A stretch of 64,000 nucleotides of DNA, taken from IMG/VR virus record IMGVR_UViG_3300040801_002721; one strand, 5' to 3'. Of this stretch, positions 39,144 to 59,858 are shown piece by piece (position 1 is the stretch's first letter; each line of letters opens with the position of its first letter). The DNA is from a virus. Under the pieces are notes generated by a model. It had not been told where the DNA came from and ran no database searches. It saw nothing but the letters and a program-made list of their open reading frames with translations. The translations under genes were made by a program, and so were the position numbers.

Positions 39144-39191
39144 TACCCAACGGGCGGCTGAAACATGCCGCCCACCTTCATAGGAGCACAT

Positions 39192-41551: not shown

Positions 41552-42012
41552 GTGCACTTGATCGAATCGTAGACAATCTTGGTAAGTTGCCAGAAGTACT
41601 CGAAGAGTATGAGCAGGCGCTTGACACCAAGACCGTTGAAGACAACTTGAGAATCAAAGGTAAAGTTCTCGAGACGGCGAATTCTGAACAGCCAGGCTGG
41701 TTGCTATATTACGACAGCCGCCGAGCTGAACTCTATGCTTTGATGAAGTGGCTTGAGAGCAGACTTGCAGCCGTCCGCGGCAAGTACTTCAAACAATACA
41801 CCGAACACTATTCACGCGAGCTGTCCGACAGACAGAAAGACAAGTACATAGACAACGAACAACAAGTTCAAGTGCAACTGGAATTGTATCTGCAAGTAAA
41901 GGAACTGCACGACAGATTCCAAGCCGTGGTAGATGCATTTCAGGCAAGAGGGTTTGCGCTTAAGAACATCACGGAATTAAGAATAAGAAGTCTTGAAGAC
42001 TCAGTGATTTAA
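41548..42012 (+). CDS. uvsY: Recombination mediator UvsY
   Basis: Coiled-coil protein with YSRELSDRQKDKYIDNE and ARGFALKNITELR, between uvsX and uvsW. Confidence 0.8.
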   Translation: MSALDRIVDNLGKLPEVLEEYEQALDTKTVEDNLRIKGKVLETANSEQPGWLLYYDSRRAELYALMKWLESRLAAVRGKYFKQYTEHYSRELSDRQKDKYIDNEQQVQVQLELYLQVKELHDRFQAVVDAFQARGFALKNITELRIRSLEDSVI

Positions 42013-44564
42013 TGGCGAATGTAAAGGTAAAGATACTAGACGAAGTCAATTGTGTAATCATCGGCCTTAAGCCAGACCACGCTCTATACTTCTGGGAAGA
42101 GTTCGGTCGCCATGCGCCTGGGTATTTCTTCAATCCAAAGTTCAAGATTGGGCAGTGGGATGGTAAGATTCGGTACTTCAGTAAGACCGGTAAAACATAC
42201 GTCTATCTTCTCGACGAGATTATCCCCATGCTCGTCGGTCTCAAGTATAAAGTGCACGTCGAAGACCTCCGCGTACACGACGTCCCCGAAGTCCCTCTGA
42301 TTGATAAGAATTACTTCAAGCACATCTGGCATCCCGAGTGGAACGAGTACATTGAACTCCGAGATCATCAGGTAGATGCTGTCAACACTGTCACTCAAGA
42401 CCCAGGAATCATCATCGCTGGTACCGGTGCTGGTAAGGCACAACCTCTGTATAGCAAGATCCTGACTACGACGGGCTGGAAGCAGATGGGAGACATGTGT
42501 GTTGGCGATGAGTTGGTAGATCCAACAGGTGGCACCACAGGGGTTATCGGTGTGTTTCCGCAACCACAGCGCAAACCCGTATATGAACTGACTTTCCACG
42601 ATGGTGCGAAAACGAGAGCATGCAGTGAGCATTTGTGGGACGCGTACGTTCCGAAGCAACAATACCAGGCCTGGACGGAACGCAAAGTAATCACTACACA
42701 GGATATAGTCGATTTTTACGCTAGGAAAAATGCTGGCGAACTGCATACACCCGGTAACGTGTCCGTTCCGTTAACGGAGCCAGTTGAGATGGTGGAACAG
42801 TCCCTCCCTCTTGACCCCTACACGCTTGGCTTACTGATCGGCGATGGCCACCTGAAAGGCACGCCTGTGTTTACCACAGCCGATCAGGAGTTGTTGATTG
42901 CTCTACAAGAGGGAATATCCACGCTGTCTAACATCAAGGTTCAATATACAGGATATGGATACGATTATCGGTTGTCTAAGCTCAACGAGGTGCACAATCG
43001 TTATGTCTCTAACGAGCTTGTCGACATTCTTAAAACCCTTAATTTGTACGGCACTACCAGCTATACGAAATTCATTCCATCGCTGTATAAAGACGGAAGT
43101 GTTGCTCAACGGCTAGCTTTGATTCAAGGACTGATGGATACAGACGGCACAGTCGACGCTAGGGGGAATACTTCGTTTAGTACAGCAAGTTTGCAGCTAG
43201 CTAATGACGTGCAGCGGATATGCTGGTCCTTGGGTATGACGTGTACGCGTGCCCCAAAAACGTCCAACGTGCACACCATATCATATACCTTACAAATACA
43301 ATGCAAAATGCCCCAGCAACTCTTCCGACTCGAACGGAAACGAGCACGATGCAGAAAAGTACATGGAGACGGCCGCGTTGCCCTGACGCGTCGGGTAACG
43401 AATGTAGAGTTCGTGGGGTACGAAGATACGCAATGTATTGCAGTTGACAGTGATAGCCACTTGTACATCACCGACGACTACGTTGTGACACATAACACGC
43501 TAACGTGTGCAGCACTCTGTGATCTGTACGGCAAGGCTGGACTCTCGACCGTAACAATCGTACCTTCCAAAGACCTAATCGAACAGACGTACAAAGAATA
43601 TGTCATCTGCGAGCTTGACACCGGCAGATACTCCGGCGACAACAAGGACATTAACCACCGACACATTGTGTCCACGTGGCAGTCGCTGAAGAACAACCCG
43701 CTGCTGATGGAACAGTTCGACATGGTAATCGTCGACGAGGTCCACGGCGCGAAAGGCAAGATGTTGCAGAGTCTTCTCGTCGATCATGGTGCTACGATTC
43801 GCCTACGCTTCGGCCTAACTGGCACTCTCCCGAAAGAAGAGACTGATGCAATGGCGGTTCGGATCGGTGTTGGTGATGTGAAGTACACGATCTCTGCGCG
43901 ACAGTTGATGGACCAGGGTCATCTCGCACAGCTTGATATTCAGATCCTTCAACTCGAAGAAGATTTCGACAAGGAATACGCAGAATACAGGCAAGACAAC
44001 CCATTTGATAAACGCACGTTGACTCAATTCAAAGATGGGTACTTCCCTGACTACCAAGCCGAAAAACGGTACCTGCAGTCTAACAACGAACGAATTGAAT
44101 GGATTGCTGACTACATCTCGTTGAAAAGAGATGAGAAAAAAGGTAATGTATTCTGTCTTGTTGATGGTATTCGTTTTGGTAAGAAACTAGCCGAAGCTAT
44201 CCCTGGTGCTGTCTTCGTGCATGGCAAGGACAAGCAGAAAGCTCGACAAGAAATATACCAGATGTTCAAAGACAACGATAACTTGGTTGTCATTGCAACT
44301 GTGCACATTGCGTCAACGGGACTGAGCATTAACCGTATCTTCAACATGATGTTCATTGACGTTGGTAAGTCGTTTATCCGAGTGATTCAAACTATCGGTA
44401 GAGGACTAAGAAAGGCCAAAGATAAGGATAGCGTACTTGTAACGGACATCTGTTCGGACCTCAAGTACGGAAAGCGTCATCTTACAGAGCGAACGAAGTT
44501 CTACAAAGAAGCGCAGTATCCATACAAAAAGAAAAAGGTGAAATACAGCGATGTTGATATATGA
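42012..44564 (+). CDS. uvsW: SF2 helicase UvsW, intein-containing
   Basis: WDGKIRYF, ELRDHQVDAV, GTGAGK/T, IVSTWQSL, VIVDEVH, FGLTGT, IQTIGRGLRK. Confidence 0.95.
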   Translation: MANVKVKILDEVNCVIIGLKPDHALYFWEEFGRHAPGYFFNPKFKIGQWDGKIRYFSKTGKTYVYLLDEIIPMLVGLKYKVHVEDLRVHDVPEVPLIDKNYFKHIWHPEWNEYIELRDHQVDAVNTVTQDPGIIIAGTGAGKAQPLYSKILTTTGWKQMGDMCVGDELVDPTGGTTGVIGVFPQPQRKPVYELTFHDGAKTRACSEHLWDAYVPKQQYQAWTERKVITTQDIVDFYARKNAGELHTPGNVSVPLTEPVEMVEQSLPLDPYTLGLLIGDGHLKGTPVFTTADQELLIALQEGISTLSNIKVQYTGYGYDYRLSKLNEVHNRYVSNELVDILKTLNLYGTTSYTKFIPSLYKDGSVAQRLALIQGLMDTDGTVDARGNTSFSTASLQLANDVQRICWSLGMTCTRAPKTSNVHTISYTLQIQCKMPQQLFRLERKRARCRKVHGDGRVALTRRVTNVEFVGYEDTQCIAVDSDSHLYITDDYVVTHNTLTCAALCDLYGKAGLSTVTIVPSKDLIEQTYKEYVICELDTGRYSGDNKDINHRHIVSTWQSLKNNPLLMEQFDMVIVDEVHGAKGKMLQSLLVDHGATIRLRFGLTGTLPKEETDAMAVRIGVGDVKYTISARQLMDQGHLAQLDIQILQLEEDFDKEYAEYRQDNPFDKRTLTQFKDGYFPDYQAEKRYLQSNNERIEWIADYISLKRDEKKGNVFCLVDGIRFGKKLAEAIPGAVFVHGKDKQKARQEIYQMFKDNDNLVVIATVHIASTGLSINRIFNMMFIDVGKSFIRVIQTIGRGLRKAKDKDSVLVTDICSDLKYGKRHLTERTKFYKEAQYPYKKKKVKYSDVDI
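42438..43496 (+). mobile_element. Class 3 intein (353 aa) with LAGLIDADG endonuclease in UvsW
   Basis: Ala1 (AQPLYSKILTTTGW); block B ACSEHLW; PYTLGLLIGDG and LIQGLMDTDG; block F TQCIAV; ends VTHN before Thr+1. Confidence 0.93.
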
Positions 44565-45513: not shown

Positions 45514-45927
45514 ATGTCAAAAGGTAAACCAACAATAGCAAAACTCAAGGCGCTGCTTGAAGCAATCGACCTGATGTCTGAAGATGACGATTGGACGCCG
45601 ACGGCGCGGCAATGGAAGCGAATCCGTGACATCATTGATGCACTAGACGAAGAGCCAGAACCTGCGCCTATCGTTTCACATGGACCAGCGCCTCGTCCGA
45701 CTACGCACGCAGCACCAGCCGGTGGACACAACCCCTGGAGAACAGGAGAAGCGGCTGCTCTTGTACCAGATGTACCTTCGAAAATTCCTGCTGATGCTCC
45801 ACGAACACCCAATGCCGCACCTGGACAGTCCTCTCTAGCAAGCGTTGCAGGTGGCGGTCGTTCTGGTGTACCATCCGGCAATGGACAACCACCAGGTGAT
45901 AACCCTCCAGCAGGCCCTGAACTGTAA
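45514..45927 (+). CDS. Hypothetical protein with a Pro/Ala-rich tail
   Basis: SD GAGG; helical N-terminus WTPTARQWKRIRDII. Confidence 0.7.
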   Translation: MSKGKPTIAKLKALLEAIDLMSEDDDWTPTARQWKRIRDIIDALDEEPEPAPIVSHGPAPRPTTHAAPAGGHNPWRTGEAAALVPDVPSKIPADAPRTPNAAPGQSSLASVAGGGRSGVPSGNGQPPGDNPPAGPEL

Positions 45928-46468
45928 CTACCTTACCGCTCTCAATGACCGTGTGCTGTTCTTCGACGGCGACACGGTCATCTCCCCCTCCAAGGTCACC
46001 GACTTCCTTGCGTATACCGCGAATGGTCAAATATGTGTAACAGATATAGTGCCGGAGATCGAGGTATACAACCAAGTAGCTGACTGCCCCATCGTCGAGA
46101 AAACAGAATTCAATCAATTCGACCTGAGCTGGAAACTTCCTCAAGAATGGGTAGATTTGGACGTCAATCAATACGTTTTCGACTGTTTTGAACGTCAAGT
46201 TACGATCGAGCCTCACACATTCTCAGATAGAGAGACGCTCGACAAATACATCAATAGGGTAGAAGAAGAGTTGGATACCTATCGGGACCTAAATCTGTAC
46301 CCGTTGCTCCGAGCAGTCATATATACCATACATATGCTTCGTAGCAATCAGATTGTGTGGGGTGTCGGTAGAGGAAGTAGTGTATCCAGCTATGTGTTGT
46401 ATTTAGTGGGGGTGCACGACGTCGACAGTGTTTTCTTTGAACTGGATTACACCGACTTCCTGCGATAA
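45845..46468 (+). CDS. DNA polymerase III alpha (DnaE)-like fragment A (pre-catalytic palm region); start uncertain
   Basis: RVEEEL..Y...LRAVIY....LRSNQIVWGVGRGSSVSSYVLYLVGVHDVDSVFFELDYTDFLR parallels DnaE ..VGPGRGSxAGSLVAYxLxITxxDPxxxxLLFERFL. Confidence 0.85.
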   Translation: MQVAVVLVYHPAMDNHQVITLQQALNCNYLTALNDRVLFFDGDTVISPSKVTDFLAYTANGQICVTDIVPEIEVYNQVADCPIVEKTEFNQFDLSWKLPQEWVDLDVNQYVFDCFERQVTIEPHTFSDRETLDKYINRVEEELDTYRDLNLYPLLRAVIYTIHMLRSNQIVWGVGRGSSVSSYVLYLVGVHDVDSVFFELDYTDFLR

Positions 46469-46481
46469 TAGGGAGATTTTT

Positions 46482-46844
46482 ATGGGAAAGAAAGTCAGAA
46501 GTATGCGCGGTGAGCTCATCGATTGGGATCTCGCAACTGTGAAGAACCAAATGAAAGATAAGCCTGCACCGGTCAATGTGAAGAACCGCCAAGACTTCAT
46601 CGACGCCAAGCTGCGCCGCCGCGTCAAGAAGGTTAAAGACCAACTCGGGCAACTCGAATCATCTAAAGTAGATCGTAAAATTGCCGCTCCACCTGTTGAA
46701 GAGCGAGCTAAGATTGACGAAGCTCCTGTAGAAGCAAATACAACAGAGCAAGTTGAAACACCTGAGGTGGAAAACACAACATCAAAGCGTTCAGTCCGCC
46801 GCAAGTCTTCAACCAGTAAAGCATCTACAGACGATAAGGAATAA
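46482..46844 (+). CDS. Hypothetical basic protein (start revised to ATG 46482)
   Basis: SD GGGAG; MGKKVRSMRGELIDWDL. Confidence 0.7.
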   Translation: MGKKVRSMRGELIDWDLATVKNQMKDKPAPVNVKNRQDFIDAKLRRRVKKVKDQLGQLESSKVDRKIAAPPVEERAKIDEAPVEANTTEQVETPEVENTTSKRSVRRKSSTSKASTDDKE

Positions 46845-46846
46845 CC

Positions 46847-47167
46847 ATGGAACCAACAGTATTCGACGAAATTGAAGTTCTTGAAGGATTCATTCTTTTC
46901 AAGTTCGAAGAAGAGATCGACCCCAGTCGCCACAATGCGTTCACAGAAAAAACACAGAGTGGTATCATCATGCCATCGAATCCACTTACGGCTGGTGACT
47001 ACGCGCGATGGGGTACAGTTGTTGCTGTTGGACCAAACGTGGATGAAGAAATCACTGTAGGTACTCGCGTTCTAATCGAACCGCTGAAGTGGACGAAAGT
47101 CAGTACCTATAAGGGGGAAGAGTTTGCTAGGACGGAGATGGGATTCATTCTGGCAGTAGGAGAATAA
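46847..47167 (+). CDS. GroES-like co-chaperonin
   Basis: KTQSGIIMP mobile loop, WGTVVAVGP, ITVGTRVLI. Confidence 0.85.
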   Translation: MEPTVFDEIEVLEGFILFKFEEEIDPSRHNAFTEKTQSGIIMPSNPLTAGDYARWGTVVAVGPNVDEEITVGTRVLIEPLKWTKVSTYKGEEFARTEMGFILAVGE

Positions 47168-48451
47168 ATGGCTGTATTCATCGCGTTCGTAACGTCAATC
47201 GCTCTGGCTGGCGTCGCAGCATGGTTTAGTATCACGGGCCTCATGGCGATCTTTGCGGCGTTGCCGCTTTCGGTCGCTATCATGGCAGGCGTTCTAGAAG
47301 TAGGTAAACTCGTCACAGCAAGTATTCTGTACCGGAATTGGTCTACAATTCCGGCGTTGATGAAGGGATATCTATCTGCCGCTGTTGTGGTGCTGATGTT
47401 GATCACGTCGCTGGGCATCTTTGGATATCTCAGCAAAGCCCATCTTGAGCAAAACGCTCCTGTATCGAACAATATCGCTAAGATCGAACGGCTCGAACAA
47501 CGCATCGAACGCGAAGAGCGCATTATTGCTGACGCCGAAACTGTTATCGCACAACTGGATGACACTGTTGCCACTCTGATCGAGTACGACAAGATTAGTG
47601 GTCCTGACGGCGCTCGAGCCGTGCGTGATAGTCAGCAGGAACAGCGTAATCTGCTGGACCAAAGCATCGATGAAGCACAGGCTCGCATCGATGAATATCT
47701 CGACGAGAAATTTCAGTTCGAGCAACAAGTCCGTGACTTCGAAACGGAAGTTGGACCGATCAAGTACCTCGCGGCTCTCGCTTACGACAACCCTGCTGAA
47801 CACTACGATACGGCGGTGAGAGCGATCATCCTTCTTCTAATATTCGTATTTGACCCACTTGCTGTTTTGCTACTTATCACAGCAAACCACTTACAGATCA
47901 AACGCGATGGTGAAAAGATCCCAGATCCCCAACCTGCTAGCGACGATGACCTGTTTGACGTAGCCGACTACAAACACGAGCAATCACGTCTTGACCACGA
48001 ACAAGCAGTCGTTGACAACGAGGAATTGAACAATCAACTGGAACGTCTGAGGGCAGTGCTACGCGATGAGCACGAACATCCATCTTTGCCTCAACCAAAA
48101 TGGACAGAGACTGAGGAAGACTTGGGTCCAGTAGAAGAAGCATTCCACGATGCAGAAGAACTACCGTGGCGCATACAAGTGCAAGAAGACTGGGATTCGG
48201 AAGAGGAAGATGAACTACCAGAACCTCCACCAATGCCTGAGAACACAGAGCACCCCGAGCACGAAATACGCCCAACCACTTCACGCGAGGAAACCTTCAG
48301 CCCTCGACAGTCACAACAACGTGCCGCAGTTCAGCGACAGATGGAGGCGCTCAAGCGTGTAGCAGGGTCTACAGACGTTAGTCGCGTAGGCACGAATCCA
48401 CCTAGAAACCCTCTGGCGGATGTATACGAAAAGGGCAAAGACATCGGTTGA
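47168..48451 (+). CDS. Membrane protein with a coiled coil and acidic tail
   Basis: Three N-terminal hydrophobic segments, a long heptad region, a fourth TM (AIILLLIFVFDPLAVLLLI). Confidence 0.75.
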   Translation: MAVFIAFVTSIALAGVAAWFSITGLMAIFAALPLSVAIMAGVLEVGKLVTASILYRNWSTIPALMKGYLSAAVVVLMLITSLGIFGYLSKAHLEQNAPVSNNIAKIERLEQRIEREERIIADAETVIAQLDDTVATLIEYDKISGPDGARAVRDSQQEQRNLLDQSIDEAQARIDEYLDEKFQFEQQVRDFETEVGPIKYLAALAYDNPAEHYDTAVRAIILLLIFVFDPLAVLLLITANHLQIKRDGEKIPDPQPASDDDLFDVADYKHEQSRLDHEQAVVDNEELNNQLERLRAVLRDEHEHPSLPQPKWTETEEDLGPVEEAFHDAEELPWRIQVQEDWDSEEEDELPEPPPMPENTEHPEHEIRPTTSREETFSPRQSQQRAAVQRQMEALKRVAGSTDVSRVGTNPPRNPLADVYEKGKDIG

Positions 48452-48477
48452 CGTTCTTGATACAACTCCAGTATAGT
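48448..48477 (+). promoter_or_regulatory. Possible sigma70-like promoter for the clamp loader
   Basis: TTGACG-N18-TATAGT. Confidence 0.5.
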
Positions 48478-48511
48478 TCTTAGATAATCATAACTATAAG
48501 GGATTAGTTGT

Positions 48512-49432
48512 ATGGCTGGCACTCACGCTTTGTGGGCAGAGAAGTATCGACCTACCGAAATCGAGAACTACATCTTTCACGATGAGTCACATAAGCGCGC
48601 ATTCGCTAGGATGTGTATCGATCAAAGTATCCCCCATCTGCTCCTTTCAGGCGTTCAGGGGTCTGGTAAGACCACCATTGCGAAGATCCTCATTAACGAG
48701 CTCGACATCGACGATACTGACGTTCTGAAGATCAACGCTTCAGAAGAGAACTCAGTTGATACGATTCGCGACAAGATTAAGAGCTTCGTCTCAACGTTTG
48801 CTCTTGGTCCTTTCAAGGTAATCTTGCTAGACGAGGCAGACTACATCACACCAAATGGACAAGCTGTACTCCGTAATCTGATGGAGACATACAACGAAAC
48901 AGCTCGGTTCATCCTAACGTGCAACTACGAACACAAGATTCTACCTGCCATCATCTCCCGCTGTCAGCACTTCCGATTCAAGGCCGGCAATCGCGACGAC
49001 ATCACTGAGTACGTTGCCCAGATCCTCATTGACGAGAATGTGACGTTTGACCTCGACGTACTTGATACGTACGTTAGCATTGGTTACCCCGACGTTCGCA
49101 AGATCATCAACCTTCTTCAGCAGAGTGCGTCTGAGGGAGTGTTGCATGAACCGACTGGCGTCGCTAGCTCCGGAGACTACAAGTTTGATCTTCTCGACAA
49201 GATTAAGGCAGGGGATTGGCACGGCGCACGAGAGCTGTGCTGTGGTCAGGTTGTCGCCGAAGAGTGGGAAGACGTCTACAGGTTCCTCTACGAGAACGCC
49301 GACAAGTGCTTCAAGGGGGAGAAGTGGGAATCGGCTATTGTGGTAATTGCCGAACACTTATACAAGCACAGCATCTGTGCAGATCCAGAAATCAATGCAG
49401 CGGCGATGTTTATCTCATTGTCGACCATATAA
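48512..49432 (+). CDS. gp44: Clamp loader AAA+ subunit (gp44/RFC-small)
   Basis: LWAEKYRP, SGVQGSGKTT, INASEE, VILLDEADY, FILTCNY, AIISRC. Confidence 0.95.
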   Translation: MAGTHALWAEKYRPTEIENYIFHDESHKRAFARMCIDQSIPHLLLSGVQGSGKTTIAKILINELDIDDTDVLKINASEENSVDTIRDKIKSFVSTFALGPFKVILLDEADYITPNGQAVLRNLMETYNETARFILTCNYEHKILPAIISRCQHFRFKAGNRDDITEYVAQILIDENVTFDLDVLDTYVSIGYPDVRKIINLLQQSASEGVLHEPTGVASSGDYKFDLLDKIKAGDWHGARELCCGQVVAEEWEDVYRFLYENADKCFKGEKWESAIVVIAEHLYKHSICADPEINAAAMFISLSTI

Positions 49433-49443
49433 GGAGAATAATA

Positions 49444-50172
49444 ATGGAAGAATGGGCAACACCAGTCACGCGCATCAACACCGACACTATTGTCGCCAAT
49501 GTACCCTCTTCACTAAACGGAGGAGTAACGCTTGGCCCTGTTACGGTCAACGCTTACTTCGTTGTTGACATTCCGAAGTTCAATCCAGCAATCCAGCCAA
49601 TTGAAGCGAATCTGTGGGAGAGTGGGAAGATTGTTGCAACCAAGCCCCCATACCGCGTAGAGCTCGACGAGACAGCCATCACAGAATATGCGATTGACGT
49701 CAGCTTTGAAACCTTGATCGAAGACAAGTCGTCGGTTATGGTTGAGTTGGTGTTCAAGAATCACACCGTCGGTACTCGTAAGTTGTGGAGTCAGATTCAT
49801 ACAGAAGCTGGGATCGCCACCCCTGATCTCAATGGTTGTGACATTATCAATGTTGAGCTTCCGGGCGATATTACAGTTACAGCAACACCTATTGATTCGG
49901 GTCTGATAGGTGGTGGTACTATTTCGATCAATGAACCAATTCAATATCATGAGATCACGTTCTTCAATGGCAATCAAGACATCATGAGAATCGATGCATC
50001 GACCGGTGAAATCGAGTGGTTTATCGAACCGTCTGAAGCCGCCGTACAGGCGTGGAAGATCATGAAGGACGCCTTCCCCCAAGCATTCCAGCTTCCCACA
50101 AAGGAAGTAGAACCTGAAGCCGCAGACATTCTAACGGCATATGAACGAGCAATGAGAGTAGTGGAGAAATAA
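49444..50172 (+). CDS. Hypothetical protein (start revised to ATG 49444)
   Basis: SD AAGGAG. Confidence 0.7.
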   Translation: MEEWATPVTRINTDTIVANVPSSLNGGVTLGPVTVNAYFVVDIPKFNPAIQPIEANLWESGKIVATKPPYRVELDETAITEYAIDVSFETLIEDKSSVMVELVFKNHTVGTRKLWSQIHTEAGIATPDLNGCDIINVELPGDITVTATPIDSGLIGGGTISINEPIQYHEITFFNGNQDIMRIDASTGEIEWFIEPSEAAVQAWKIMKDAFPQAFQLPTKEVEPEAADILTAYERAMRVVEK

Positions 50173-50462
50173 TGGCTTCGAACAAACGACTAGAAAAGAT
50201 CGCTAACACAGCGAACCGCAGCGACAAGGTATCGTGGAATCGCAAGATGGATAATATGGTTCGTCTTGTTGCGCGGATCAACGAGATCCAAGACGAAATC
50301 TGGGATCTTGAAGCAGAAAAGCAGCCACTGTTCGACGAGATGACGGAGCTCCGTGAAGTGATGATCCGTGAGTGCATTCACCCAGTCAACCACCTTATCG
50401 AACACGAAGATCACGTGTATTGTAAGTTCTGTGAGAGACGCATTGCCCCAGCAAACGAATAA
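50172..50462 (+). CDS. Small coiled-coil protein with a C-terminal Cys/His cluster
   Basis: ECIHP...HVYCKFC. Confidence 0.7.
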   Translation: MASNKRLEKIANTANRSDKVSWNRKMDNMVRLVARINEIQDEIWDLEAEKQPLFDEMTELREVMIRECIHPVNHLIEHEDHVYCKFCERRIAPANE

Positions 50463-50934
50463 AGGTCGATCGCTCAACATATTTAACCTCCTATCTCGGA
50501 TCAGTGAGAAGGATGCTGCATACATTGACGTTCTCGACGAGAAAGAGACAAAGGAGTTTCAACCCTTCGTTACGATGAGGTGGCTGACTGGTACATCCGA
50601 TCCGCGTCAGATCTACTTCCTCAACGAGCTCGTCAACCCTCATGTGTTTGAGTTCCGCGATAAGCGACTACTGTACTACCTGCTGACTATAGCAGCATCC
50701 GGTCAGCATCAACGGTACAAATGGAAGAAGCCTGCGTCCCGCAAGGGCGCATCGCTTTCCACAGCCGTAACAGTGATCAAACGTTTCTACGACTACACAA
50801 CGAAACAAGCTGTGGACGTGTTGCCCATTCTCTCTAACGAGCAGATCATGGAACATGCGGAGGATCTTGGTCTTCAGAAGGAGGAGATCAATCAGCTCCG
50901 CAAAGAACTGAAGACCCGAAATGGCAAAGTATAA
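50443..50934 (+). CDS. Putative clamp loader subunit (gp62-like); TTG start proposed
   Basis: IFNLLSRI...FQPFVTMRWL...YFLNELVN; close to gp44. Confidence 0.55.
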   Translation: MPQQTNKGRSLNIFNLLSRISEKDAAYIDVLDEKETKEFQPFVTMRWLTGTSDPRQIYFLNELVNPHVFEFRDKRLLYYLLTIAASGQHQRYKWKKPASRKGASLSTAVTVIKRFYDYTTKQAVDVLPILSNEQIMEHAEDLGLQKEEINQLRKELKTRNGKV

Positions 50935-51601
50935 CTACCGATGCAAATTCTGCGATGCTGGGTTCGTTCGTGAAGATCGATACCTCAAGCATCGCTGCAA
51001 GGCAATGGAGCGTGATGAAGAGATTCGCACACCGATTGGCCAAGCAGCATGGGAGTATTATAAGCTGTGGTTGACCCTACAGCGCCGCCAGGCACCAACA
51101 GTTCAAACTTTCCTTGACTCGCGCTACTATACGGCACTCGTTCGCTTCGCTAAGTTTGCTCAGAAGACTGGAATCCCGAACACTGAGCAATACATCAAGT
51201 ATATGGTACGCAGCGACGTTAGTCCTATGCTGTGGACAAACGATCAGATGTACAGCGACTACCTGCAGTATTTGGACCGCGGTAGGGATCCAATGGCACA
51301 GGTGCAATACACGATCGACTACCTATTCAAGATCGCCGATGCTCTCGAATGTGAAGTAGGTGAAATCTTCGACCATCTCAACGCTGACGAAGTGATTATG
51401 ATGCTTCGTCGCCGCCAACTAACCCCTTGGATTCTGCTGCATAGCTCGAAGTTTAGAGATTTCACACAGAAGAAGATGACTACAGACCAACAGATGGTCT
51501 TCAAAACAATTGTCAAACCTGAGACGTGGGTCTCCCGCCGCAAAGACAATCCTGACATTGTAGCCACTATGAAAGAAATCGTCCGCGAACTCAACTTGTA
51601 A
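50921..51601 (+). CDS. Hypothetical protein with an N-terminal C2H2-like zinc finger
   Basis: YRCKFCDAGFVREDRYLKHRC. Confidence 0.7.
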   Translation: MAKYNYRCKFCDAGFVREDRYLKHRCKAMERDEEIRTPIGQAAWEYYKLWLTLQRRQAPTVQTFLDSRYYTALVRFAKFAQKTGIPNTEQYIKYMVRSDVSPMLWTNDQMYSDYLQYLDRGRDPMAQVQYTIDYLFKIADALECEVGEIFDHLNADEVIMMLRRRQLTPWILLHSSKFRDFTQKKMTTDQQMVFKTIVKPETWVSRRKDNPDIVATMKEIVRELNL

Positions 51602-51640
51602 GGCCGCCTAAATACGGTACAAGTTTTCGCGGATGGATAA

Positions 51641-52942
51641 ATGTCAGACACGTATTTCCTGTATCTCTCAGACGGCACGTTCGAAGCTACAATTGATCCA
51701 GGCACAACAAAATCAGTACGCAATCTGGACCTCGATGGTTTCCAGAAACCTGCCTATGGGGAACGCAGAAACAACAACTACGTACGTCTACTAACGAACT
51801 TCGCCAGCGAAGAAGATCCTTCTAACCCCGGCAACCCGCGACCAGAGGTAATCGCTAATCCGTTGCCAGGGCAGTTGTGGTTCAACAAGACATCCAATCC
51901 GCCAGGATATCCCAACGGACGCTTGAACGTGTTTGATGGTACCTCGTGGCGAGAGATCGGCGAGGACATTTATGCGCTCGATCAAGACGACTTGAGCGCT
52001 ACCGGCGGTTCCATTAACCTTCTTCTGAGCTCCGGCAACCCAGGCGATGAGGTTCGGATCAACAACATAGCTGCGCGTGACGAGGTGCAAGACCACATCA
52101 ATAACGTCGCTGACCTGCATCCTGCGACTGCCATCAGCGTGACGGGGTTTGCACCGCTAGTCAACGTTGATCAAGTGATCGATGATCTAGACAACACGAT
52201 TGATGCTCACATAATCGATACAGTTGATGCACACGACGGTATAAATATTTCAGTAACTCCATCCGGTTTCACATCAACCAACGTTCAAGCAGCGCTCGTT
52301 GAGTTATCTGCTGACATTAACGCACTGTCTGCTCTTGTAGGCGGTTCAAGCACACTCCTTCAAGATCACATTGACGATACAGTTGATGCTCATGATTCGT
52401 CGGCAATTTCTTACAACAACAGCTCCTCGGGATTCGCTGCTACGAACGTACAAGATGCTCTTGTAGAACTAGCAGCTGCTGCAACAGTTACATCATCAAG
52501 TACTATCATTGACAGCATCCGAGTTACTCGCACATCAGCGCAAACGATTTCTGCTGGGGGGACAGTAGTGCTGTTCAACACAGTTGTCAGTGGTATTGGC
52601 GGAATGTCCGGACAGTACAGCACAATTACGGGTAGATATACAGCGGCGTACGATCAGATTGTACGAGTTAGTGCTTGTGTAGGACTGCAGCAGGTATTGT
52701 CAGAAAACTTGATGTTCGTGCAGATCCGCAGAAACGGCGCTGTGCAGCGAAGAGCAAACAAATATCAATGGGGAGAAAACTTCCCCTCACAGGAAGAGGT
52801 TGAATGTTCGTGCCTCGTTGAGCTGGCGGCAGGACAATATATTGACGTGGTCGCGGGGCGAAACCCTTCTGGTTCAACGGGCGTTGTGGCGACTGGACAA
52901 ACAACCTTCATGGAGATTGACATTTTGAGGGATCTATCATGA
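51641..52942 (+). CDS. Baseplate-anchored fibre paralog 1 with a C1q-like tip
   Basis: Late promoter TAAATA 51609-14; YGE..N.N..RLL.NFA...PGQLWF anchor; HI.DTVDAHD repeats; VLFNTV...YTA..DQIVRVSA tip. Confidence 0.75.
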   Translation: MSDTYFLYLSDGTFEATIDPGTTKSVRNLDLDGFQKPAYGERRNNNYVRLLTNFASEEDPSNPGNPRPEVIANPLPGQLWFNKTSNPPGYPNGRLNVFDGTSWREIGEDIYALDQDDLSATGGSINLLLSSGNPGDEVRINNIAARDEVQDHINNVADLHPATAISVTGFAPLVNVDQVIDDLDNTIDAHIIDTVDAHDGINISVTPSGFTSTNVQAALVELSADINALSALVGGSSTLLQDHIDDTVDAHDSSAISYNNSSSGFAATNVQDALVELAAAATVTSSSTIIDSIRVTRTSAQTISAGGTVVLFNTVVSGIGGMSGQYSTITGRYTAAYDQIVRVSACVGLQQVLSENLMFVQIRRNGAVQRRANKYQWGENFPSQEEVECSCLVELAAGQYIDVVAGRNPSGSTGVVATGQTTFMEIDILRDLS

Positions 52943-54249
52943 GTAGAACTAGATACCTGCTAGTCGACGCTGATAGCAACTTCATTGGCTATCTCTCCAA
53001 AGACAGCCTGACGCTAACGGATGGTACGGCAATCACACCTCCTGAACTGGGTGGGTTGTCATTCACGGGTCGTGGTGATACACCTTATGGTGTAGAACGA
53101 AACGAGAATATCTTGCGACTGCTCGACAACTTCGCTTCTGATGAGATTGCCGCTAACACTCCATCGCCAACTGTGATCGATAATCCTCTTGTGGGTCAGC
53201 TCTGGTATAACAGAACTACAGAAACACTTCTGGTATACGGAAATAGTGGCTGGCAAAGTGTTTCAGTCGACCGTCACGTTGAGTCAATTGATGACAGTAG
53301 GCTCGTTTCACAAGGCGAAGTCGATCTTGTGCGGAATGCCGCGTCCGGGTTTCCTCCGATCACGCTTGTAAACATCGCCCACGAGACGGGTGCTGGTGGA
53401 TTCGCAGAACACGTGGGAACATCTCCAAACGCTCACCCAGCTGAGTTTATCACGTATGGTGGCACAGATACACAGAATGCTATCGAGAATCTGTTTACTG
53501 ATGTTTTTGATCACATCAATGACCCTACCGCCGCACACAACGCCACCGCTATCTCGCTGCCAACAGGAATCGGTATCATTGGTGATCCAGACGATGTGCA
53601 AGAGGCGATTGATAATCTACTAGCCGAACTAGCTATCATTGACGGAAACATCACGGGCGACGCACTAACCGATCACATCAACGATCCTGTCGATGCTCAT
53701 GATGCTTCGGCAATCTCTGTTCCAACAGGACTTGGCCTTCCAGGTAACCCAACAGACGTACAAACGGCCATCGAGAACATCAACGCATCTGTTGGTGTTG
53801 GCGGCAGTGGTGTGCTTGGTGTAAGTCGTTTCGTTAAGACCGGGCCGCAGGCTATTGGAACTTCGACCAAGATTGTTTTCCCCTCGATTGAGTTAGACAC
53901 CGGAGGAGGTCAATACTCAACAGGTACAAGTACATACACAGCAACATTCCAACAAGAAGTCAACGTCACGGTTGCTCTTAAATTCACTGCCGTAAATGAA
54001 AGTGAAGGGGAAATACAGATCAGACGCAATGGTGGTATTGTTCGACGATCTCGCTTCACCAACTTCGACAACAGTTTCAGCACGTCGATTCTGACGCAAG
54101 ATTACGCTTTTGAAATCAGCATTAAGCTCCTACTAGCGTTTGGCGATACCGTTGAAGTATATGGAGCAATTTCACCTGGCTCTGGTAACGTCCTTGCCGA
54201 TGCAACAGGCACATTCGTGGAGTTTGACGTAGTGAGGGATTTGTCATAA
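52939..54249 (+). CDS. Fibre paralog 2 with a C1q-like tip
   Basis: Same anchor (YGVERNENILRLLDNFA..VGQLWY), HINDP..AH repeats, KIVFPSIELD..TYTA tip. Confidence 0.75.
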   Translation: MSRTRYLLVDADSNFIGYLSKDSLTLTDGTAITPPELGGLSFTGRGDTPYGVERNENILRLLDNFASDEIAANTPSPTVIDNPLVGQLWYNRTTETLLVYGNSGWQSVSVDRHVESIDDSRLVSQGEVDLVRNAASGFPPITLVNIAHETGAGGFAEHVGTSPNAHPAEFITYGGTDTQNAIENLFTDVFDHINDPTAAHNATAISLPTGIGIIGDPDDVQEAIDNLLAELAIIDGNITGDALTDHINDPVDAHDASAISVPTGLGLPGNPTDVQTAIENINASVGVGGSGVLGVSRFVKTGPQAIGTSTKIVFPSIELDTGGGQYSTGTSTYTATFQQEVNVTVALKFTAVNESEGEIQIRRNGGIVRRSRFTNFDNSFSTSILTQDYAFEISIKLLLAFGDTVEVYGAISPGSGNVLADATGTFVEFDVVRDLS

Positions 54250-56405
54250 TGGCTAACACATATCAACTTAACTTCAGCGACGGTACGCCTGCTTTCAATC
54301 TCAATGAGAATGAACTGCGCGAAGAATATGGTCTTGTATTCGTAGGTCGTGGTGTCGAAGACTACGGCCAAGCGCGCAACCAAAACCTACTGATTCTTCT
54401 TGATAACTTTGCGACAGCATCGACACCATCTCCAGCGCTTGAAGGTCAGCTATGGTACCGCAAGAACGACGGTACGCTGCTCCTTGCTCAAGGTGCGGGG
54501 CCTACGTTTGATGCAATTGGCGACGACATCTATCTTGACGCTGCAACATACACCATCGCTAGCAATTCAGTTACGCTTACTCGGAACGCGGCTGGACCAC
54601 TAACGATTTCCAACATCACCCAGCTAGACGAATACAACGCCCATATCAGTACCAACGGGCACACTGCAGATAACATCAGTTTTGATCCCAGCGCTCTATC
54701 CATTCCAGGCCCTGGTCCTGGTACCGACGTGCAGGATATTTTGGAGCAGATTGACACTGCCTTTTCTAACCACCTTACAGCCGCTGCAGCACACGCTGGG
54801 ACAGCAATAGCATCTACTCCTGAAGGAAACGTTCAGCTTGATCTCGAAGCTATCTGGGACGAGTATCAACTACTCCTTGGACAAGCAGGTGGTGGCTCGG
54901 CCGATATCACAGCCCACATCAACGATCCAACGGCTGCACATCCTGCAAGTGCCATCTCGTTTGTACCAGGGGGTGGCATCACAGCAAACTCCGTACAAAC
55001 TGCAATCGATCAAGTCAAAAACACCATCGACACACTACCAACCGCAACAGGTGTCGTCGACGTTGCCCGTGCATATTCGACATCAGCAACAACTGTAGCA
55101 TCCGGCACATCTGTTGGTGCACTGCCTGCTACGTGGTCCAAGATCAACGTTACAACTGTCTTACTTGGTGACGATCTAGGAAACTTCTCAGGCGGTTCGT
55201 ACACTGCGGATCGAGATATGCGTGTTCGCATTCGAGGATTTGCGAATATCGAAGCAGGAAGCCTAGGACAGTACGTTCACCTCCGTCTAAGACTCAATGG
55301 TAGCACTACGCTTCGTGAGGGTATAACGCTGCGGAACGCAAGCTCCTCGGCGCCGCCTGTAATTGTTTCTGTTGAGGTGTCGACTGTAGTTGACCTTGTA
55401 TTTGGCGATATCATTGACTTAGAAGCTGCACTACGACCAACAATTGTCGGACTCACAGCTTCAGGCACGTGCCAGGCCGGCTTCGACGACAACTCACTCG
55501 AAATAGAAGTGCTCGACGCTGACGTTCCTCCTGTGATACCGCCAGCCGTGCAACCTGACTGGCAAGGGTCTGCAACACAGATTCAGGTGTTCAGCGATAA
55601 CCCCGATCCCGTAGGCACTGCAAGAGCCCAGGTATTTTTCAACAGTGATGGTACTGTTAGCTCGAACACGTTTGGCGATCCGTCCCCAACACAAATTCAC
55701 CCAACAGCATGGATTGCGGGGGCTCCTACGCCTGGCGTCGGCTCTGACTATCAAATCGAAATAGTTCGGACGGGAGGCGATTTCATTACAGGTGAGACAG
55801 GAGCAAACAACTGGCAAGCTCTGCCCCGCACGCTCGATACAGGCAACGTTACCAATCCTCCGTCTCTCCCAGGTAACGATCGAACGTCGAATGGTACAGT
55901 CAGAATTCGCAGCTCGATCAACCCAACGCTTATAACAGCTACAATCAACTGGTTTGTTCGTGCTTCCGTTCCGGATGATCCTTCCGGCTGCTTCGCTGCC
56001 GGAAGTCAGGTGCTGATGAGCGATGGTACAACCAAAGCGATTGAGCACATTGTGATTGGGGATGTTGTTGCTGGAGACAGTGGATATTACAACGAGGTTG
56101 AAGGTGTTGTCGTTGTCAATACAGAACGTCTGTACTCACTGAACCGTGGTAGCTTCTTTGTGACAGCGGCACACCCATTCCTGACAGTTGACGGGTGGAA
56201 AGCAATCGACCCGTCCCTGTCTAACAGCTATCAGGATATCGATGTCGGTACGCTAGAAGTTGGTGATCAACTGATCACCACCACAGGTTATGAAGTTGTC
56301 ACGTCTGTTGAGTCTATCGAAGTGCAGGATACCGTCGTGTATACACTACAAGTTAACGGTAACGATACGTTTATCGTCGATGGCTACGTAGTGCACAACA
56401 AGTAA
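54249..56405 (+). CDS. Fibre paralog 3 ending in a Hint domain
   Basis: Same anchor (YGQARNQNLLILLDNFA..EGQLWY), His repeats, C1q-like domain, beta domain, then a Hint domain. Confidence 0.8.
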   Translation: MANTYQLNFSDGTPAFNLNENELREEYGLVFVGRGVEDYGQARNQNLLILLDNFATASTPSPALEGQLWYRKNDGTLLLAQGAGPTFDAIGDDIYLDAATYTIASNSVTLTRNAAGPLTISNITQLDEYNAHISTNGHTADNISFDPSALSIPGPGPGTDVQDILEQIDTAFSNHLTAAAAHAGTAIASTPEGNVQLDLEAIWDEYQLLLGQAGGGSADITAHINDPTAAHPASAISFVPGGGITANSVQTAIDQVKNTIDTLPTATGVVDVARAYSTSATTVASGTSVGALPATWSKINVTTVLLGDDLGNFSGGSYTADRDMRVRIRGFANIEAGSLGQYVHLRLRLNGSTTLREGITLRNASSSAPPVIVSVEVSTVVDLVFGDIIDLEAALRPTIVGLTASGTCQAGFDDNSLEIEVLDADVPPVIPPAVQPDWQGSATQIQVFSDNPDPVGTARAQVFFNSDGTVSSNTFGDPSPTQIHPTAWIAGAPTPGVGSDYQIEIVRTGGDFITGETGANNWQALPRTLDTGNVTNPPSLPGNDRTSNGTVRIRSSINPTLITATINWFVRASVPDDPSGCFAAGSQVLMSDGTTKAIEHIVIGDVVAGDSGYYNEVEGVVVVNTERLYSLNRGSFFVTAAHPFLTVDGWKAIDPSLSNSYQDIDVGTLEVGDQLITTTGYEVVTSVESIEVQDTVVYTLQVNGNDTFIVDGYVVHNK
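55989..56399 (+). other. C-terminal Hint (intein-like) domain, 137 aa, without endonuclease
   Basis: CFAAGSQVLMSDG (block A), FVTAAHPF (TxxH block B), VYTLQV..NDTFIVDGYVVHN (blocks F/G), then Lys-TAA. Confidence 0.92.
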
Positions 56406-56432
56406 ATACGGTATACCTAAAGAGGAAGGCAG

Positions 56433-59267
56433 ATGTCAAACCCTGAAGATTACATCATTCGATTTACGGATCCGGTACGAGGCGACGGTGAGATTAACAG
56501 TACCACCGAGTCGCCTACGTTTATCATAAAGCCGTTCACAGTGGATGGTCCTCAGCATCCAACCGTAAGTCAATTCTTCACTGACCCCGAGACAGGCACT
56601 GGTATCAGCAAGCGCTCTCCTGTTGTTCTATACGGTAAGGGCATTCCTCAGTACGGCGAGCAGATGGCGAACAACATTCTGCAGATCGCCGAGAACTTCG
56701 CAGGCTCGTCGGCGCCATCTGGCGGCAGCGCGCTTCCAGGCGTGTCGTGGTTCCAAGACCAGCGTTACTGGCTGAATACAACTTCTAATGAACTGTTCGT
56801 CTGGACGGATGTTACGGGCGAATGGGTAAGTGCTGGCACCATTCCAACAGGAACTACTCGTCCTGCTCTACCAGCGCTACCGTCGATGCCATACTTTTAC
56901 GACACTGATGACCAGATCCTCTACCTCTACTACGAGTGGACTGAATACACACCTACGTTTGCTGACTGGCTCGACCGAGCAGCACGACTAGAGACTTCAG
57001 ATCCAACTCTCGGACCCCTCGATCCGGTTGTCAATCGTGATGAGCTTCCGCGCAGAACGCTAAGTGTATACGATCCAACAGTCGGTGTTGAATCATACAA
57101 TAAACTACTTTCGTATCGAGGCAATGATGCTGGCGATCCAATGGGTCCAATCTACCTGGATACGGCAACATATCCTATCACCGATCCTACACAGGTGACG
57201 ACCAAGGACTATGTAGATACGTTGGTCCTCGCCGAAATCGGTAACAACAACCAACTACACGAACTGCTAGATGTCGACACCACAATTGACGCTCGCAACC
57301 CAACGTCTGTCAGTGATGGCTGGGCGCTACTCTTCGACACGAGCCTGGGTGGGACATTCGGCGGTGATGTGTATGACGGTCGTTGGACAGCTCGTCAGCT
57401 TCTAAGCACCGACATCGGGGACTTTAACTCAGCTGTGACTGGACTGGTTGGCTCTATCGCCCTCGACGATCTGTCAGACGTCGACGCACCAACCCCAGGC
57501 ATCAACAACGTCTTGAGATACAACAACGTCTCAGGAAACTGGGAAGCTGCTCAAGAGCGTTATCTTTTGGCTGACGGTGAAACAACTCCGTACTCTGTAA
57601 ATGGCTCGAACCAAATCATCCTTGAGCGGATCGGACCTGGCGCAGGTCTGAACACAGTCACTATCTCTGGCGTGTCGAGCGTAACAGACCTAAACAATCA
57701 CATCGCTGCCGCTTCGGCTCACGATGACATTCAGATCGAATGGACTGGTGGCACGGTCGGTGGCTCAACCGTTAACAACGTTCGGGAAGCAATCGAAGCT
57801 GTCGAAGCCGCCGCTGGTTCGGCTGGCAACATTGGTTACACATCGATTGGTACCGCAGGCACCAACGCTTCAGGGGTCGCCGACTCTAGTACTGGCTTGG
57901 GGTCGATGATCTTCAGTTGTGGAACGGCTGGCCTTGATATCACCGTATCTGACGGCGGTACAAACGACACGGTCGACTTTGCTCTAAATTACACGGCTCT
58001 ACAAAGTAACCTCAACCACGACTTGCTCAGTGGTTTCGTATCCGACGAGCACGTAGACCACGCGAGTGTGCAGATCATCGCAGGTACAGGACTTACAGGC
58101 GGCGGCTTCATCACCGGTAACGTCACACTAAACCTAGGCAACACAGCAGTTACACCCGGATCGTACACCAACGCCGACATCACAGTTGACGCTCAGGGTC
58201 GAATCACGGCAGCGGCAAACGGAACTGGTGGCGGTGGTGGCATCAACAACGTTATCGAAGATACAACACCGCAGCTTGGTGGTGACCTCGATCTAAACGG
58301 TAACGATATCACCGGCTCAGGGGTAATACAGGCTAGTTCCGGATCAGCTGCAACTCCAACATATTCGTTCTCTGGCGACACCAATACAGGGATGTACGCG
58401 AGCGCTGCAGATCAAATCAGCTGGTCATGCGGTGGTAATGAGCGGTTGGTTCTCAGTCCGAGTGGTACGCTAACAGCTGATCAGGCAATGCAGGCTGCCC
58501 CTGGATCTGCTGGAGCTCCAACATTCTCGTTTATTGGTAATACTAACACCGGTATGTACCGTTCGCTGACGAACCGCGTCGCGTTTGCAGCAGCAGGTGC
58601 ACAAAGACTAGAGATCTCCTCAACAGACATTACCGCTACGGTGCCATACCACGGAACCGGCGGATCAGCTGCAGCGCCAACCTTCTCGTTCGACGGTGAT
58701 CCGAACACAGGTATCTACAACTCAGGCGTAGACGTTGTCGGGATCACCTGCGGTGGCACCAACCGCCTATCGATCTCCACAGGTTCGATTACATCGATCG
58801 AGCCATACGTCGGCCCAGCCGGCGCAGGCGGCGCACCAACTTTCACGTTCATCGGCGATCAAGACACCGGCATGTTCAACCGTGGCATCAACGAAATCGG
58901 TTGGTCTTGCGGTGGCAACGAGCGCCTGTTCCTAGACTCTACTGGTAACCTAACCGCTGATGGTAACGTTACGGCTAACTCTGACCGACGTCTGAAGGAA
59001 GACCTCGAGATAATCGAGAACCCGCTCGAAAAGGTTGCTCAGCTAAACGGTTACACATATAAGCGTAAGGATCGTGACGGTCGTCACGCAGGTGTTGTAG
59101 CTCAAGAAGTTGAGGCTGTTCTTCCAGAAGTGGTTCACGAAGATGCCGATACGGGTATGAAGTCTGTAGCTTACGGTAATATGGCTGCTCTGTTCGTCGA
59201 GGCGATCAAAGAACTCCAGGCAGAAGTTGCTTCCCTAAAAGCAGAGCTTGCAGAACTGAAGAAGTGA
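56433..59267 (+). CDS. Fibre paralog 4 with a C-terminal peptidase S74 intramolecular chaperone
   Basis: Anchor YGEQMANNILQIAENFA; four APT(Y/F)(S/T)FxGxxxTG repeats; SDRRLKE...HAGVVAQEVEAVLPEVV. Confidence 0.88.
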   Translation: MSNPEDYIIRFTDPVRGDGEINSTTESPTFIIKPFTVDGPQHPTVSQFFTDPETGTGISKRSPVVLYGKGIPQYGEQMANNILQIAENFAGSSAPSGGSALPGVSWFQDQRYWLNTTSNELFVWTDVTGEWVSAGTIPTGTTRPALPALPSMPYFYDTDDQILYLYYEWTEYTPTFADWLDRAARLETSDPTLGPLDPVVNRDELPRRTLSVYDPTVGVESYNKLLSYRGNDAGDPMGPIYLDTATYPITDPTQVTTKDYVDTLVLAEIGNNNQLHELLDVDTTIDARNPTSVSDGWALLFDTSLGGTFGGDVYDGRWTARQLLSTDIGDFNSAVTGLVGSIALDDLSDVDAPTPGINNVLRYNNVSGNWEAAQERYLLADGETTPYSVNGSNQIILERIGPGAGLNTVTISGVSSVTDLNNHIAAASAHDDIQIEWTGGTVGGSTVNNVREAIEAVEAAAGSAGNIGYTSIGTAGTNASGVADSSTGLGSMIFSCGTAGLDITVSDGGTNDTVDFALNYTALQSNLNHDLLSGFVSDEHVDHASVQIIAGTGLTGGGFITGNVTLNLGNTAVTPGSYTNADITVDAQGRITAAANGTGGGGGINNVIEDTTPQLGGDLDLNGNDITGSGVIQASSGSAATPTYSFSGDTNTGMYASAADQISWSCGGNERLVLSPSGTLTADQAMQAAPGSAGAPTFSFIGNTNTGMYRSLTNRVAFAAAGAQRLEISSTDITATVPYHGTGGSAAAPTFSFDGDPNTGIYNSGVDVVGITCGGTNRLSISTGSITSIEPYVGPAGAGGAPTFTFIGDQDTGMFNRGINEIGWSCGGNERLFLDSTGNLTADGNVTANSDRRLKEDLEIIENPLEKVAQLNGYTYKRKDRDGRHAGVVAQEVEAVLPEVVHEDADTGMKSVAYGNMAALFVEAIKELQAEVASLKAELAELKK

Positions 59268-59285
59268 TAGTATGATATCCATCAG

Positions 59286-59858
59286 ATGGATATTGATATT
59301 GACTTTCCGACAGACTTTGACCCACTGACCATTTTCGACGCAGTTCGTGCGTCAATGGTCAAAGAAGGGAAGCTCGTCAAACACCCTGTTGGAATCTACT
59401 TCCAAAACATGCCAAGAGATTCGGTTACTGGATTGGCTGCGATCCCCTACGATCGTGCACAAGAAGTTGGTTACTACAAGATCGATTTTCTGCACTTGGG
59501 TGTCCTCGACCACTTCGACGACAAAGAACAGATTCGCAAGCTAATCAAGGTACCACCAGACTGGAGTCTTCTCCAAGACGAAGCGATCGTCGCTAAACTA
59601 TTCCAGGTTGGAAGACAGTACCAACTTCTCTCGCGGATTAAACCACAATCGATCCAAGAGCTGGCGGACGTGATCGCTCTGATTCGCCCCGGCAAACGCC
59701 ATCTAGTCGCTGCATACGTGAAGGACAAAGAGGCTGTGAGGCCTGAGCTGTACACCAAGCCGGACAACGGTAAGCAGTATTACAAGAAGTCTCACGCCGT
59801 AGCATATGCGCTGACAATCGTTCTCCAACTACATCTCGCTAAAGGCGGATTGCTATAA
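59286..59858 (+). CDS. DNA polymerase III alpha (DnaE)-like fragment B (catalytic aspartates plus partial fingers)
   Basis: MDIDIDF (PDxDxDF), KHPVGIY (KHAGG), YYKIDFLHL (KFDFLGL), LFQ, IALIRPG (ALYRPG), YYKKSHAVAYA (FNKSHSAAYA). Confidence 0.88.
   Translation: MDIDIDFPTDFDPLTIFDAVRASMVKEGKLVKHPVGIYFQNMPRDSVTGLAAIPYDRAQEVGYYKIDFLHLGVLDHFDDKEQIRKLIKVPPDWSLLQDEAIVAKLFQVGRQYQLLSRIKPQSIQELADVIALIRPGKRHLVAAYVKDKEAVRPELYTKPDNGKQYYKKSHAVAYALTIVLQLHLAKGGLL

Follow-up and report, generated by a model that had tools for sequence, protein, structure and literature searches.

The virus record IMGVR_UViG_3300040801_002721 from IMG/VR, of which a stretch of 64,000 nucleotides (here called the window) was analysed, encodes two small proteins, A and B, which together correspond to the catalytic core of the alpha subunit of bacterial DNA polymerase III (Pol III alpha, DnaE). 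With a probability of roughly 0.8, both are considered to be this phage's copy of the split minimal Pol III alpha core, a family C polymerase of Pol-beta fold that marks the 'group 2.2' jumbo phages, i.e. those resembling Rak2 and XacN1, and whose halves we infer to constitute an active, heterodimeric polymerase. Within this arrangement A is the helical, nucleoside triphosphate (NTP)-binding half of the palm with the GRGS loop and B provides the strands with the three catalytic aspartates and the lysine of the KxD motif, whereby the fingers of B are cut to about half of their bacterial size with the FQ, RPG and KSH motifs being retained. The family was described from sequence by Iyer, Anantharaman, Krishnan, Burroughs and Aravind (2021, Viruses 13:63; PMC7824862, section 3.4.1 and Fig. 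3b) as a 'minimal, split DNA polymerase III alpha' that occurs in jumbo phages of group 2.2 (Rak2-like). As outlined in that section, the system consists of two stand-alone proteins from distant genes, of which the N-terminal half binds NTP and the C-terminal half binds Mg and the template, lacks the other Pol III domains and resides in the context of a T4-like replisome; compared with the group as presented there, the pair from the window shows nothing different in kind, comes from an uncultured microbial-mat metagenome phage and is 35-54% identical to cultured examples. Membership of the family is almost certain, and the pair is a new, fairly divergent, uncultured example of a published family, not a discovery. 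The original prediction, namely a minimised family C core that is encoded by two genes, free of inteins and located beside a T4-like replisome, is borne out by homology and folds and agrees with that section; its caution as to novelty was equally justified, given the published description and the labels 'DNA polymerase' or 'DNA polymerase III alpha' which several GenBank and RefSeq records assign to the corresponding open reading frames (ORFs).

The genes, domains and motifs on which this assignment rests are the following (aa, amino acids; pLDDT, predicted local distance difference test).
45881-46468, plus strand: gene A, encoding the 195-aa NTP-binding (N-terminal) half of the minimal split enzyme, with Pfam, PHROGs and DnaE fold matches
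45881-46132, plus strand: codons of the N-terminal domain of A (residues 1-84), which is small, of alpha/beta type and specific to this family of phages, with conserved R24, D29-G30, N64 and K74 and a pLDDT of 65-77
46358-46378, plus strand: W-G-V-G-R-G-S codons of A, the Pol-beta-type 'GS' nucleotide-binding motif, equivalent by alignment to GPGRGS of Escherichia coli DnaE
59286-59858, plus strand: gene B, C-terminal (metal- and template-binding) half, 190 aa, comprising palm strands and shortened fingers with the thumb deleted
59289-59303, plus strand: D2-I-D4-I-D6 codons of B, the DxDxD motif directly after the start codon, equivalent to D401/D403/D405 of E. coli DnaE
59478-59486, plus strand: K65-I-D67 codons of B, the KxD motif with the third catalytic aspartate, equivalent to E. 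coli K553/D555 and aligned to the KMDFLGL block of Thermus aquaticus (Taq) DnaE

Both predicted ORFs and their motifs (DxD, KHPVG, KIDFLHL, LFQ, KSH) were found as described, apart from the start of A: the prediction had begun the ORF at an upstream TTG (45845), while the ATG at 45881, used by the database gene call (P0001, 195 aa, 100% identical), is most likely the actual start. The protein ends with ...WGVGRGSSVSSYVLYLVGVHDVDSVFFELDYTDFLR (DYTDFLR), followed by the double stop TAA TAG and the ribosome-binding site of the next gene. The profile check that had been proposed for each ORF identified A as PF07733 (DNA_pol3_alpha, E 2.9e-10), whereby residues 128-206 of the 207-aa ORF starting from the TTG match profile positions 16-94, and as phrog_11127 'DNA polymerase' (1e-32). 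AlphaFold models were computed from input alignments of 40 (A) and 38 (B) homologues and reached a mean pLDDT of 84.6 for A and 76.8 for B. Residues 85-195 of the A model fit residues 278-393 of E. coli DnaE with a Z score of 12.4 and a root-mean-square deviation of 2.7 A over 108 aligned residues, and in an exhaustive comparison with 48,161 PDB representatives only DnaE and PolC were found above Z 7, the next fold, outside family C, scoring Z 4.0. For A residues 1-84, no convincing structural relative was found in the exhaustive PDB search or in the ESM Atlas (template modelling (TM) score < 0.5), and homology to the PHP domain was absent by every test used. The resemblances obtained were weak and nuclease-like (TM < 0.5); a PD-(D/E)xK nuclease was considered for this domain and rejected, as the candidate acidic/lysine pattern is not conserved in the manner of such a site. 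The upstream neighbour of A, an ORF at 45514-45927 on the plus strand, overlaps the start of A by 47 nt and possesses a Pro/Ala/Gly-rich, low-complexity C-terminal half; it has no family match.

Gene B starts 18 nt past the double stop (TGA TAG, ending at 59267) of a tail-fibre gene. Its product begins with MDIDIDF, carries KHPVG, KIDFLHL, LFQ, LIRPGK and YKKSHAVAYA, and was assigned on the basis of Pfam (PF17657, DNA_pol3_finger, E 2.3e-6), PHROGs (phrog_11778 'DNA polymerase', 1.9e-64) and fold comparison. The model of residues 68-190 fits DnaE 558-780 with Z 9.9, and the whole of B covers DnaE 406-780. The first 70 residues, which hold all three aspartates, reached a pLDDT of 43-56 when B was folded alone, as compared to more than 90 for the remainder; this may be read as a palm sheet which requires A as its partner. 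The sequence QLHL near the C-terminus of B was considered as a clamp-binding motif and rejected, as it aligns with the homologous finger helix of DnaE. Gene B is followed by a small convergent ORF, a position common to RaK2-like phages and to the fused forms described below, whereby the ORF of the window shares no sequence similarity with its counterparts.

Taken on the DnaE scale, A and B tile residues 278-780, with a single break between 393 and 401, inside 'FLNPERVSMPDFDVDF', so that the end of A and the start of B lie about 8 residues apart; the expectation that A stops almost exactly where B starts was hence correct. A and B sum up to 385 aa, close to the predicted 400 or so, and Pfam together with the DnaE fold alignment substantiates the predicted lack of the PHP, most of the thumb, the beta-binding and the OB domains. 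Precisely, the DxD motif and KHPVG are separated by about 26 residues in B as compared to about 100 in E. coli, which documents the loss of the thumb, about 115-120 of the 223 residues in DnaE 558-780 have counterparts in the fingers of B, and no clamp-binding, OB or C-terminal domain follows, the last residue of B being equivalent to DnaE 780. With bacterial DnaE (E. coli, 2HNH and 5FKV; Thermus aquaticus, 2HPI and 3E0D) and PolC, the pair shares the Pol-beta-type palm, the GS loop, the DxD motif with the third aspartate, the KxD lysine and the RPG and KSH finger motifs, all being collinear. It differs from bacterial DnaE in that the palm is spread over two polypeptides, with the break between the equivalents of 393 and 401, in that about 300 homologous residues stand for about 500 in the same span and for 1160 in whole DnaE, in the absence of the PHP, thumb, beta-clamp-binding, OB and tau-binding domains, and in the extra 84-residue N-terminal domain of A. 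A and B furthermore match consecutive parts (positions 35-111 and 340-380) of phrog_11165, a 782-aa profile whose PHP region remains unmatched; the similarity is weak (E 7e-4 to 2e-5), but suggests that PHP-less, unsplit phage DnaE forms exist. Both phrog_11165 and phrog_13169 (463 aa) stand for reduced phage proteins of DnaE type, which are single chains much longer than A or B.

Two distant genes encoding one family C polymerase are also found in cyanobacteria (Synechocystis, Nostoc), where the DnaE halves carry intein halves, are ligated into full-length DnaE and derive from a cut within the fingers. This precedent, together with the presence of inteins in this very phage, could suggest that A and B become joined into one chain by a split intein or by a trans-spliced intron. 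Pfam indeed finds genuine intein or Hint domains elsewhere in the window:
16111-18663, plus strand: large terminase subunit, 850 aa, interrupted by a LAGLIDADG intein
42012-44564, plus strand: UvsW-type helicase, 850 aa, interrupted by a LAGLIDADG intein, upstream of gene A
54249-56405, plus strand: fibre-like protein, 718 aa, with a C-terminal Hint domain (PF05203/PF14623, residues ~580-650; CFAAGSQ...VVHNK, then stop), which suggests C-terminal autoprocessing and not a true intein

In A and B, however, no Pfam match beyond PF07733 and PF17657 was obtained (no PHP, Hint or intein), and intein blocks do not fit, as all residues are either DnaE-homologous or part of the N-terminal domain of A. 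Given that A ends 2-3 residues past FL(R/K) and that B begins at DxD, intein halves of about 100 and 35 residues find no room, and here, unlike in cyanobacterial DnaE, the cut resides in the palm just before DxD. The Rfam scan of the window found no intron or other RNA family, and A terminates with a double stop codon. Joining of A and B is therefore hardly credible, and the predicted lack of a split intein holds.

That A and B are fragments of a much larger ancestral protein might equally suggest decaying relics of a once complete DnaE gene. Against this, thousands of intact homologues of the same length exist: a word-indexed search returned 2441 A-type and 1529 B-type clusters at 90% identity (lengths of 170-215 aa among the 120 best matches listed per half), and an exhaustive search with a hidden Markov model profile of B against 1.84 billion representatives returned 478 matches, of which the 150 best listed are, shorter fragments aside, almost all 180-230 aa long. 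Catalytic and NTP-binding residues are invariant in 38-40 diverse homologues and in eight cultured phages. For A, these are W160, G161, G163, R164, G165 and S166 (40 homologues); for B, the invariant columns comprise D2, D4, D6, K65-x-D67, F-Q, R134-P135 and H170 (38 homologues). The ratio of nonsynonymous to synonymous substitution rates (dN/dS), which is informative for the few pairs with dS <1 as most pairs are synonymously saturated, was 0.22 for A (dS 0.69) and 0.07 for B (dS 0.91); between the window and its closest relative, A shows dN 0.35 and dS 1.7, and B shows dN 0.18 with saturated synonymous sites. Neither of the two signs of decay named beforehand, eroded catalytic aspartates and a dN/dS near 1, was found: the aspartates are invariant and dN/dS amounts to 0.07-0.22. 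Thousands of same-length homologues with invariant catalytic residues place the feature far beyond chance, and, judged from their sequences, A and B are functional genes under purifying selection; the relic explanation is effectively refuted by the conservation data.

The nearest cultured relatives are the Xanthomonas phages XacN1 and Xoo-sp13, the Stenotrophomonas phages CM1 and RAS14 and the Ralstonia phage RsoM2USA, with B being 54% and A being 35% identical to the XacN1 proteins and XacN1 having the same A/B layout as the window; Atu_ph07, Phosso, RaK2, 121Q, PBECO4, GAP32 and PA5oct are more distant. A match in Methanobacterium virus PhiF1 was discarded as irrelevant, the protein being a full-size DnaE of 1176 aa. 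The co-occurrence of both halves, which the prediction had asked to be followed across jumbo phages, is strict: in eight complete cultured genomes across this range the A profile finds one copy in each and tblastn, per record, finds B, giving one A and one B in 8/8, and among long IMG/VR contigs carrying B, A is likewise present in 17/18, with B located at the contig end in the exception. By tblastn, RaK2-type A was identified in 93 and B in 97 phage records, with matching host counts. A and B never share one ORF or frame in the 8 cultured and 18 long IMG/VR genomes, and the break point is constant, A ending 0-3 residues past (D/E)F(L/F)(R/K/N) and B starting 0-17 residues before D-I-D-I-D (8 cultured phages). 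Public runs with the B sequence derive solely from one microbial-mat metagenome study; among them no RNA run was found, and the paired metatranscriptome holds none of the sampled words of B.

The order of A and B varies between subgroups, and the distance between both genes covers a wide range:
shortest IMG/VR loci: 3.9 kb
RsoM2USA: ~4 kb
window: 12.8 kb, with more than 10 genes in between, including clamp-loader and fibre genes
XacN1: 15 kb
RaK2-like phages: ~31-33 kb, with B ahead of A
Atu_ph07: 182 kb
Phosso: 224 kb

Distances of up to 224 kb, the variable gene order and the partial confidence with which each half folds alone would be compatible with A and B not being one enzyme but having separate, non-catalytic or regulatory roles, e.g. 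as replisome accessory factors. This is improbable, as the halves co-occur one-to-one, as their invariant residues make sense only jointly (the GS loop in A, the aspartate triad in B) and as fusions of both arose independently twice. The first type of fusion is represented by P0295 (375 aa), in which the exhaustive B-profile search located B at residues 191-374, the N-terminal half of which aligns with the entire A, N-terminal domain included (hhalign probability 99.2%), and in which the Pfam match to PF07733 spans the junction ...EFIKDNKEGIYNIADFDIDT... Two further fused versions on independent contigs, P0391 and P0392, are 78-81% identical to P0295, so that this type (375-376 aa; full A, a linker of about 10 residues and B) is found on four metagenomic contigs from four samples. 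In each of them a convergent small ORF then overlaps the 3' end, like at the B locus of RaK2-like phages. The second type, P0367 (336 aa), joins the palm part of A, without its N-terminal domain, to B; its gene overlaps the stop of, and is translationally coupled to, a gene for a 552-aa PF03090 Rep-type replicase on an 8-kb contig which also encodes endolysin-like, DUF4238 and methyltransferase genes. The fused loci are:
L104:1066-2193, L106:519-1649, L107:1827-2957 and L108:1292-2422: 375-376-aa fusions P0295, P0392 and P0391
L105:1516-4181: P0367 and its upstream gene

The 84-residue N-terminal domain of A is thus kept in the 375-aa and absent from the 336-aa fused form. When 121 B halves are placed on a maximum-likelihood tree, the fused trio lies within successive split-length clades (Shimodaira-Hasegawa-like approximate likelihood-ratio test (SH-aLRT) values of 96, 90 and 91) and P0367 within another split-length clade (SH-aLRT 98). 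As they are nested inside split forms on this unrooted, midpoint-displayed tree, the fusions are most simply explained as being secondary to the split. Whether secondary or not, they serve as Rosetta-stone evidence for A and B being a single enzyme; the section of Iyer et al. 2021 (PMC7824862) dealing with the split polymerase does not mention such re-fused single-chain variants. The pairing of P0367 with a primase-type Rep favours a primer-extending DNA polymerase, and both genes may represent a minimal primase-plus-polymerase module outside the jumbo phages.

On these grounds, A and B very likely act as one heterodimeric nucleotidyltransferase, and the latter is probably, though with less confidence, a template-dependent DNA polymerase. 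Both proteins would be translated separately and associate non-covalently, an assembly mode which is supported by the strict co-occurrence of A and B, the conserved break point and the rare natural fusions, nested as they are in split forms. The palm beta-sheet would form only in the heterodimer, which would then act as an active, probably poorly processive, template-dependent DNA polymerase working beside the T4-type family B replisome, e.g. by filling gaps, in repair or in synthesis that depends on recombination. The primase-like, gap-filling or protein/RNA-priming role put forward in the original prediction is speculation.

Several points weigh against the heterodimeric polymerase. The A-B interface is itself one that we infer, the B profile obtained no match among PDB sequences at E 0.01, and A has a conserved Asp at the position of E. 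coli DnaE R390. A and B lack the thumb and about 100 residues of the fingers, the bacterial YQEQ and RRAMGKK blocks among them; as a consequence, the duplex may be gripped poorly and processivity may be low, or the enzyme may act on another substrate than DnaE does. The family B polymerase beside which the system sits in the description by Iyer et al. 2021 (PMC7824862, section 3.4.1) is seen in the relatives and was not found in the 64-kb window, the contig being a fragment of a genome. Finally, the searchable literature yielded no biochemical or genetic test of such a split polymerase.

The replication genes of the window, in addition to the UvsW-type helicase given above, and those of a probable RNA-repair system are:
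38253-39143, plus strand: gp32-type single-strand DNA-binding protein
39165-40265, plus strand: UvsX recombinase
48512-49432, plus strand: gp44-type clamp-loader ATPase
50368-50934, plus strand: gp62-like small clamp-loader subunit (phrog_225, phrog_11758)
40347-41063, plus strand: RlaP-type (PF10127) RNA-repair nucleotidyltransferase
18992-20110, plus strand: polynucleotide-kinase-like protein

The gene order A, small ORF, GroES-like gene, one ORF, gp44 is common to the window, XacN1 and RaK2, and in RaK2 the genes for the gp61 primase and the gp41 helicase follow about 1.4 kb downstream of B. The separate family B polymerase whose presence the prediction had suggested to be verified was identified in 8/8 cultured and in 7/7 uncultured relatives that are at least 90% complete (15/15), while PHP PF02811 was found in 0/8 related complete cultured genomes with a positive control of 14/14. 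A complete family B replicase already being present in related genomes, the heterodimer might be an active Pol-beta-fold nucleotidyltransferase other than a conventional template-copying polymerase, i.e. a primase- or terminal-transferase-like enzyme or one acting on RNA or tRNA ends. This idea draws on the missing thumb, half of the fingers and clamp-binding region, on the occurrence of the Pol-beta fold in many non-polymerase enzymes and on the RNA-repair genes of the window (RlaP, polynucleotide-kinase-like). It is nevertheless unlikely, as the retained FQ, RPG and KSH motifs are DnaE-specific and invariant, the nearest structures are only DnaE and PolC, the neighbours are DNA-replication genes and one fused form pairs with a Rep-type primase in the classic layout of primer-maker and extender.

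With A and B taken as a heterodimeric polymerase, the split family would have a far smaller core than any other family C polymerase, made of two proteins and free of inteins. For biochemical and structural studies, the fused 375-aa and 336-aa versions can be used directly as single-chain constructs, and the 336-aa form, being paired with a primase, hints at a minimal two-gene replication module. As A is located in the replication module while B is found far away, directly behind tail-fibre genes, the split may even be functional, with the polymerase forming only when both halves are expressed and hence constituting a timed or dosed second polymerase. This is rather doubtful; if true, late gap repair or recombination-primed synthesis before packaging would be possible roles, and the re-fusions together with the Rep-paired 336-aa form would rank as the smallest self-contained members of family C known so far and would provide a model of the ancestor.

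The consensus of T4 late promoters, TATAAATA, occurs in 5 copies in the window as compared to 0.56 expected, at positions 878, 16831, 22687 (minus strand), 52240 and 59854. One copy overlaps the stop codon of gene B and none directly precedes A or B, while three copies reside just upstream of the ORF starts at 949, 22653 (minus strand) and 59872. The window also contains T4-like sheath, tube, large terminase subunit and head genes, and the region ahead of gene B is occupied by fibre genes:
51641-56405, plus strand: three consecutive paralogous fibre-like genes with overlapping stops
56433-59267, plus strand: tail fibre, 944 aa, with a Peptidase_S74 chaperone domain, directly before gene B

The three paralogues have in common an N-terminal module (phrog_15511 or phrog_14394) and repeated 'D..DAH.A.AIS' blocks.

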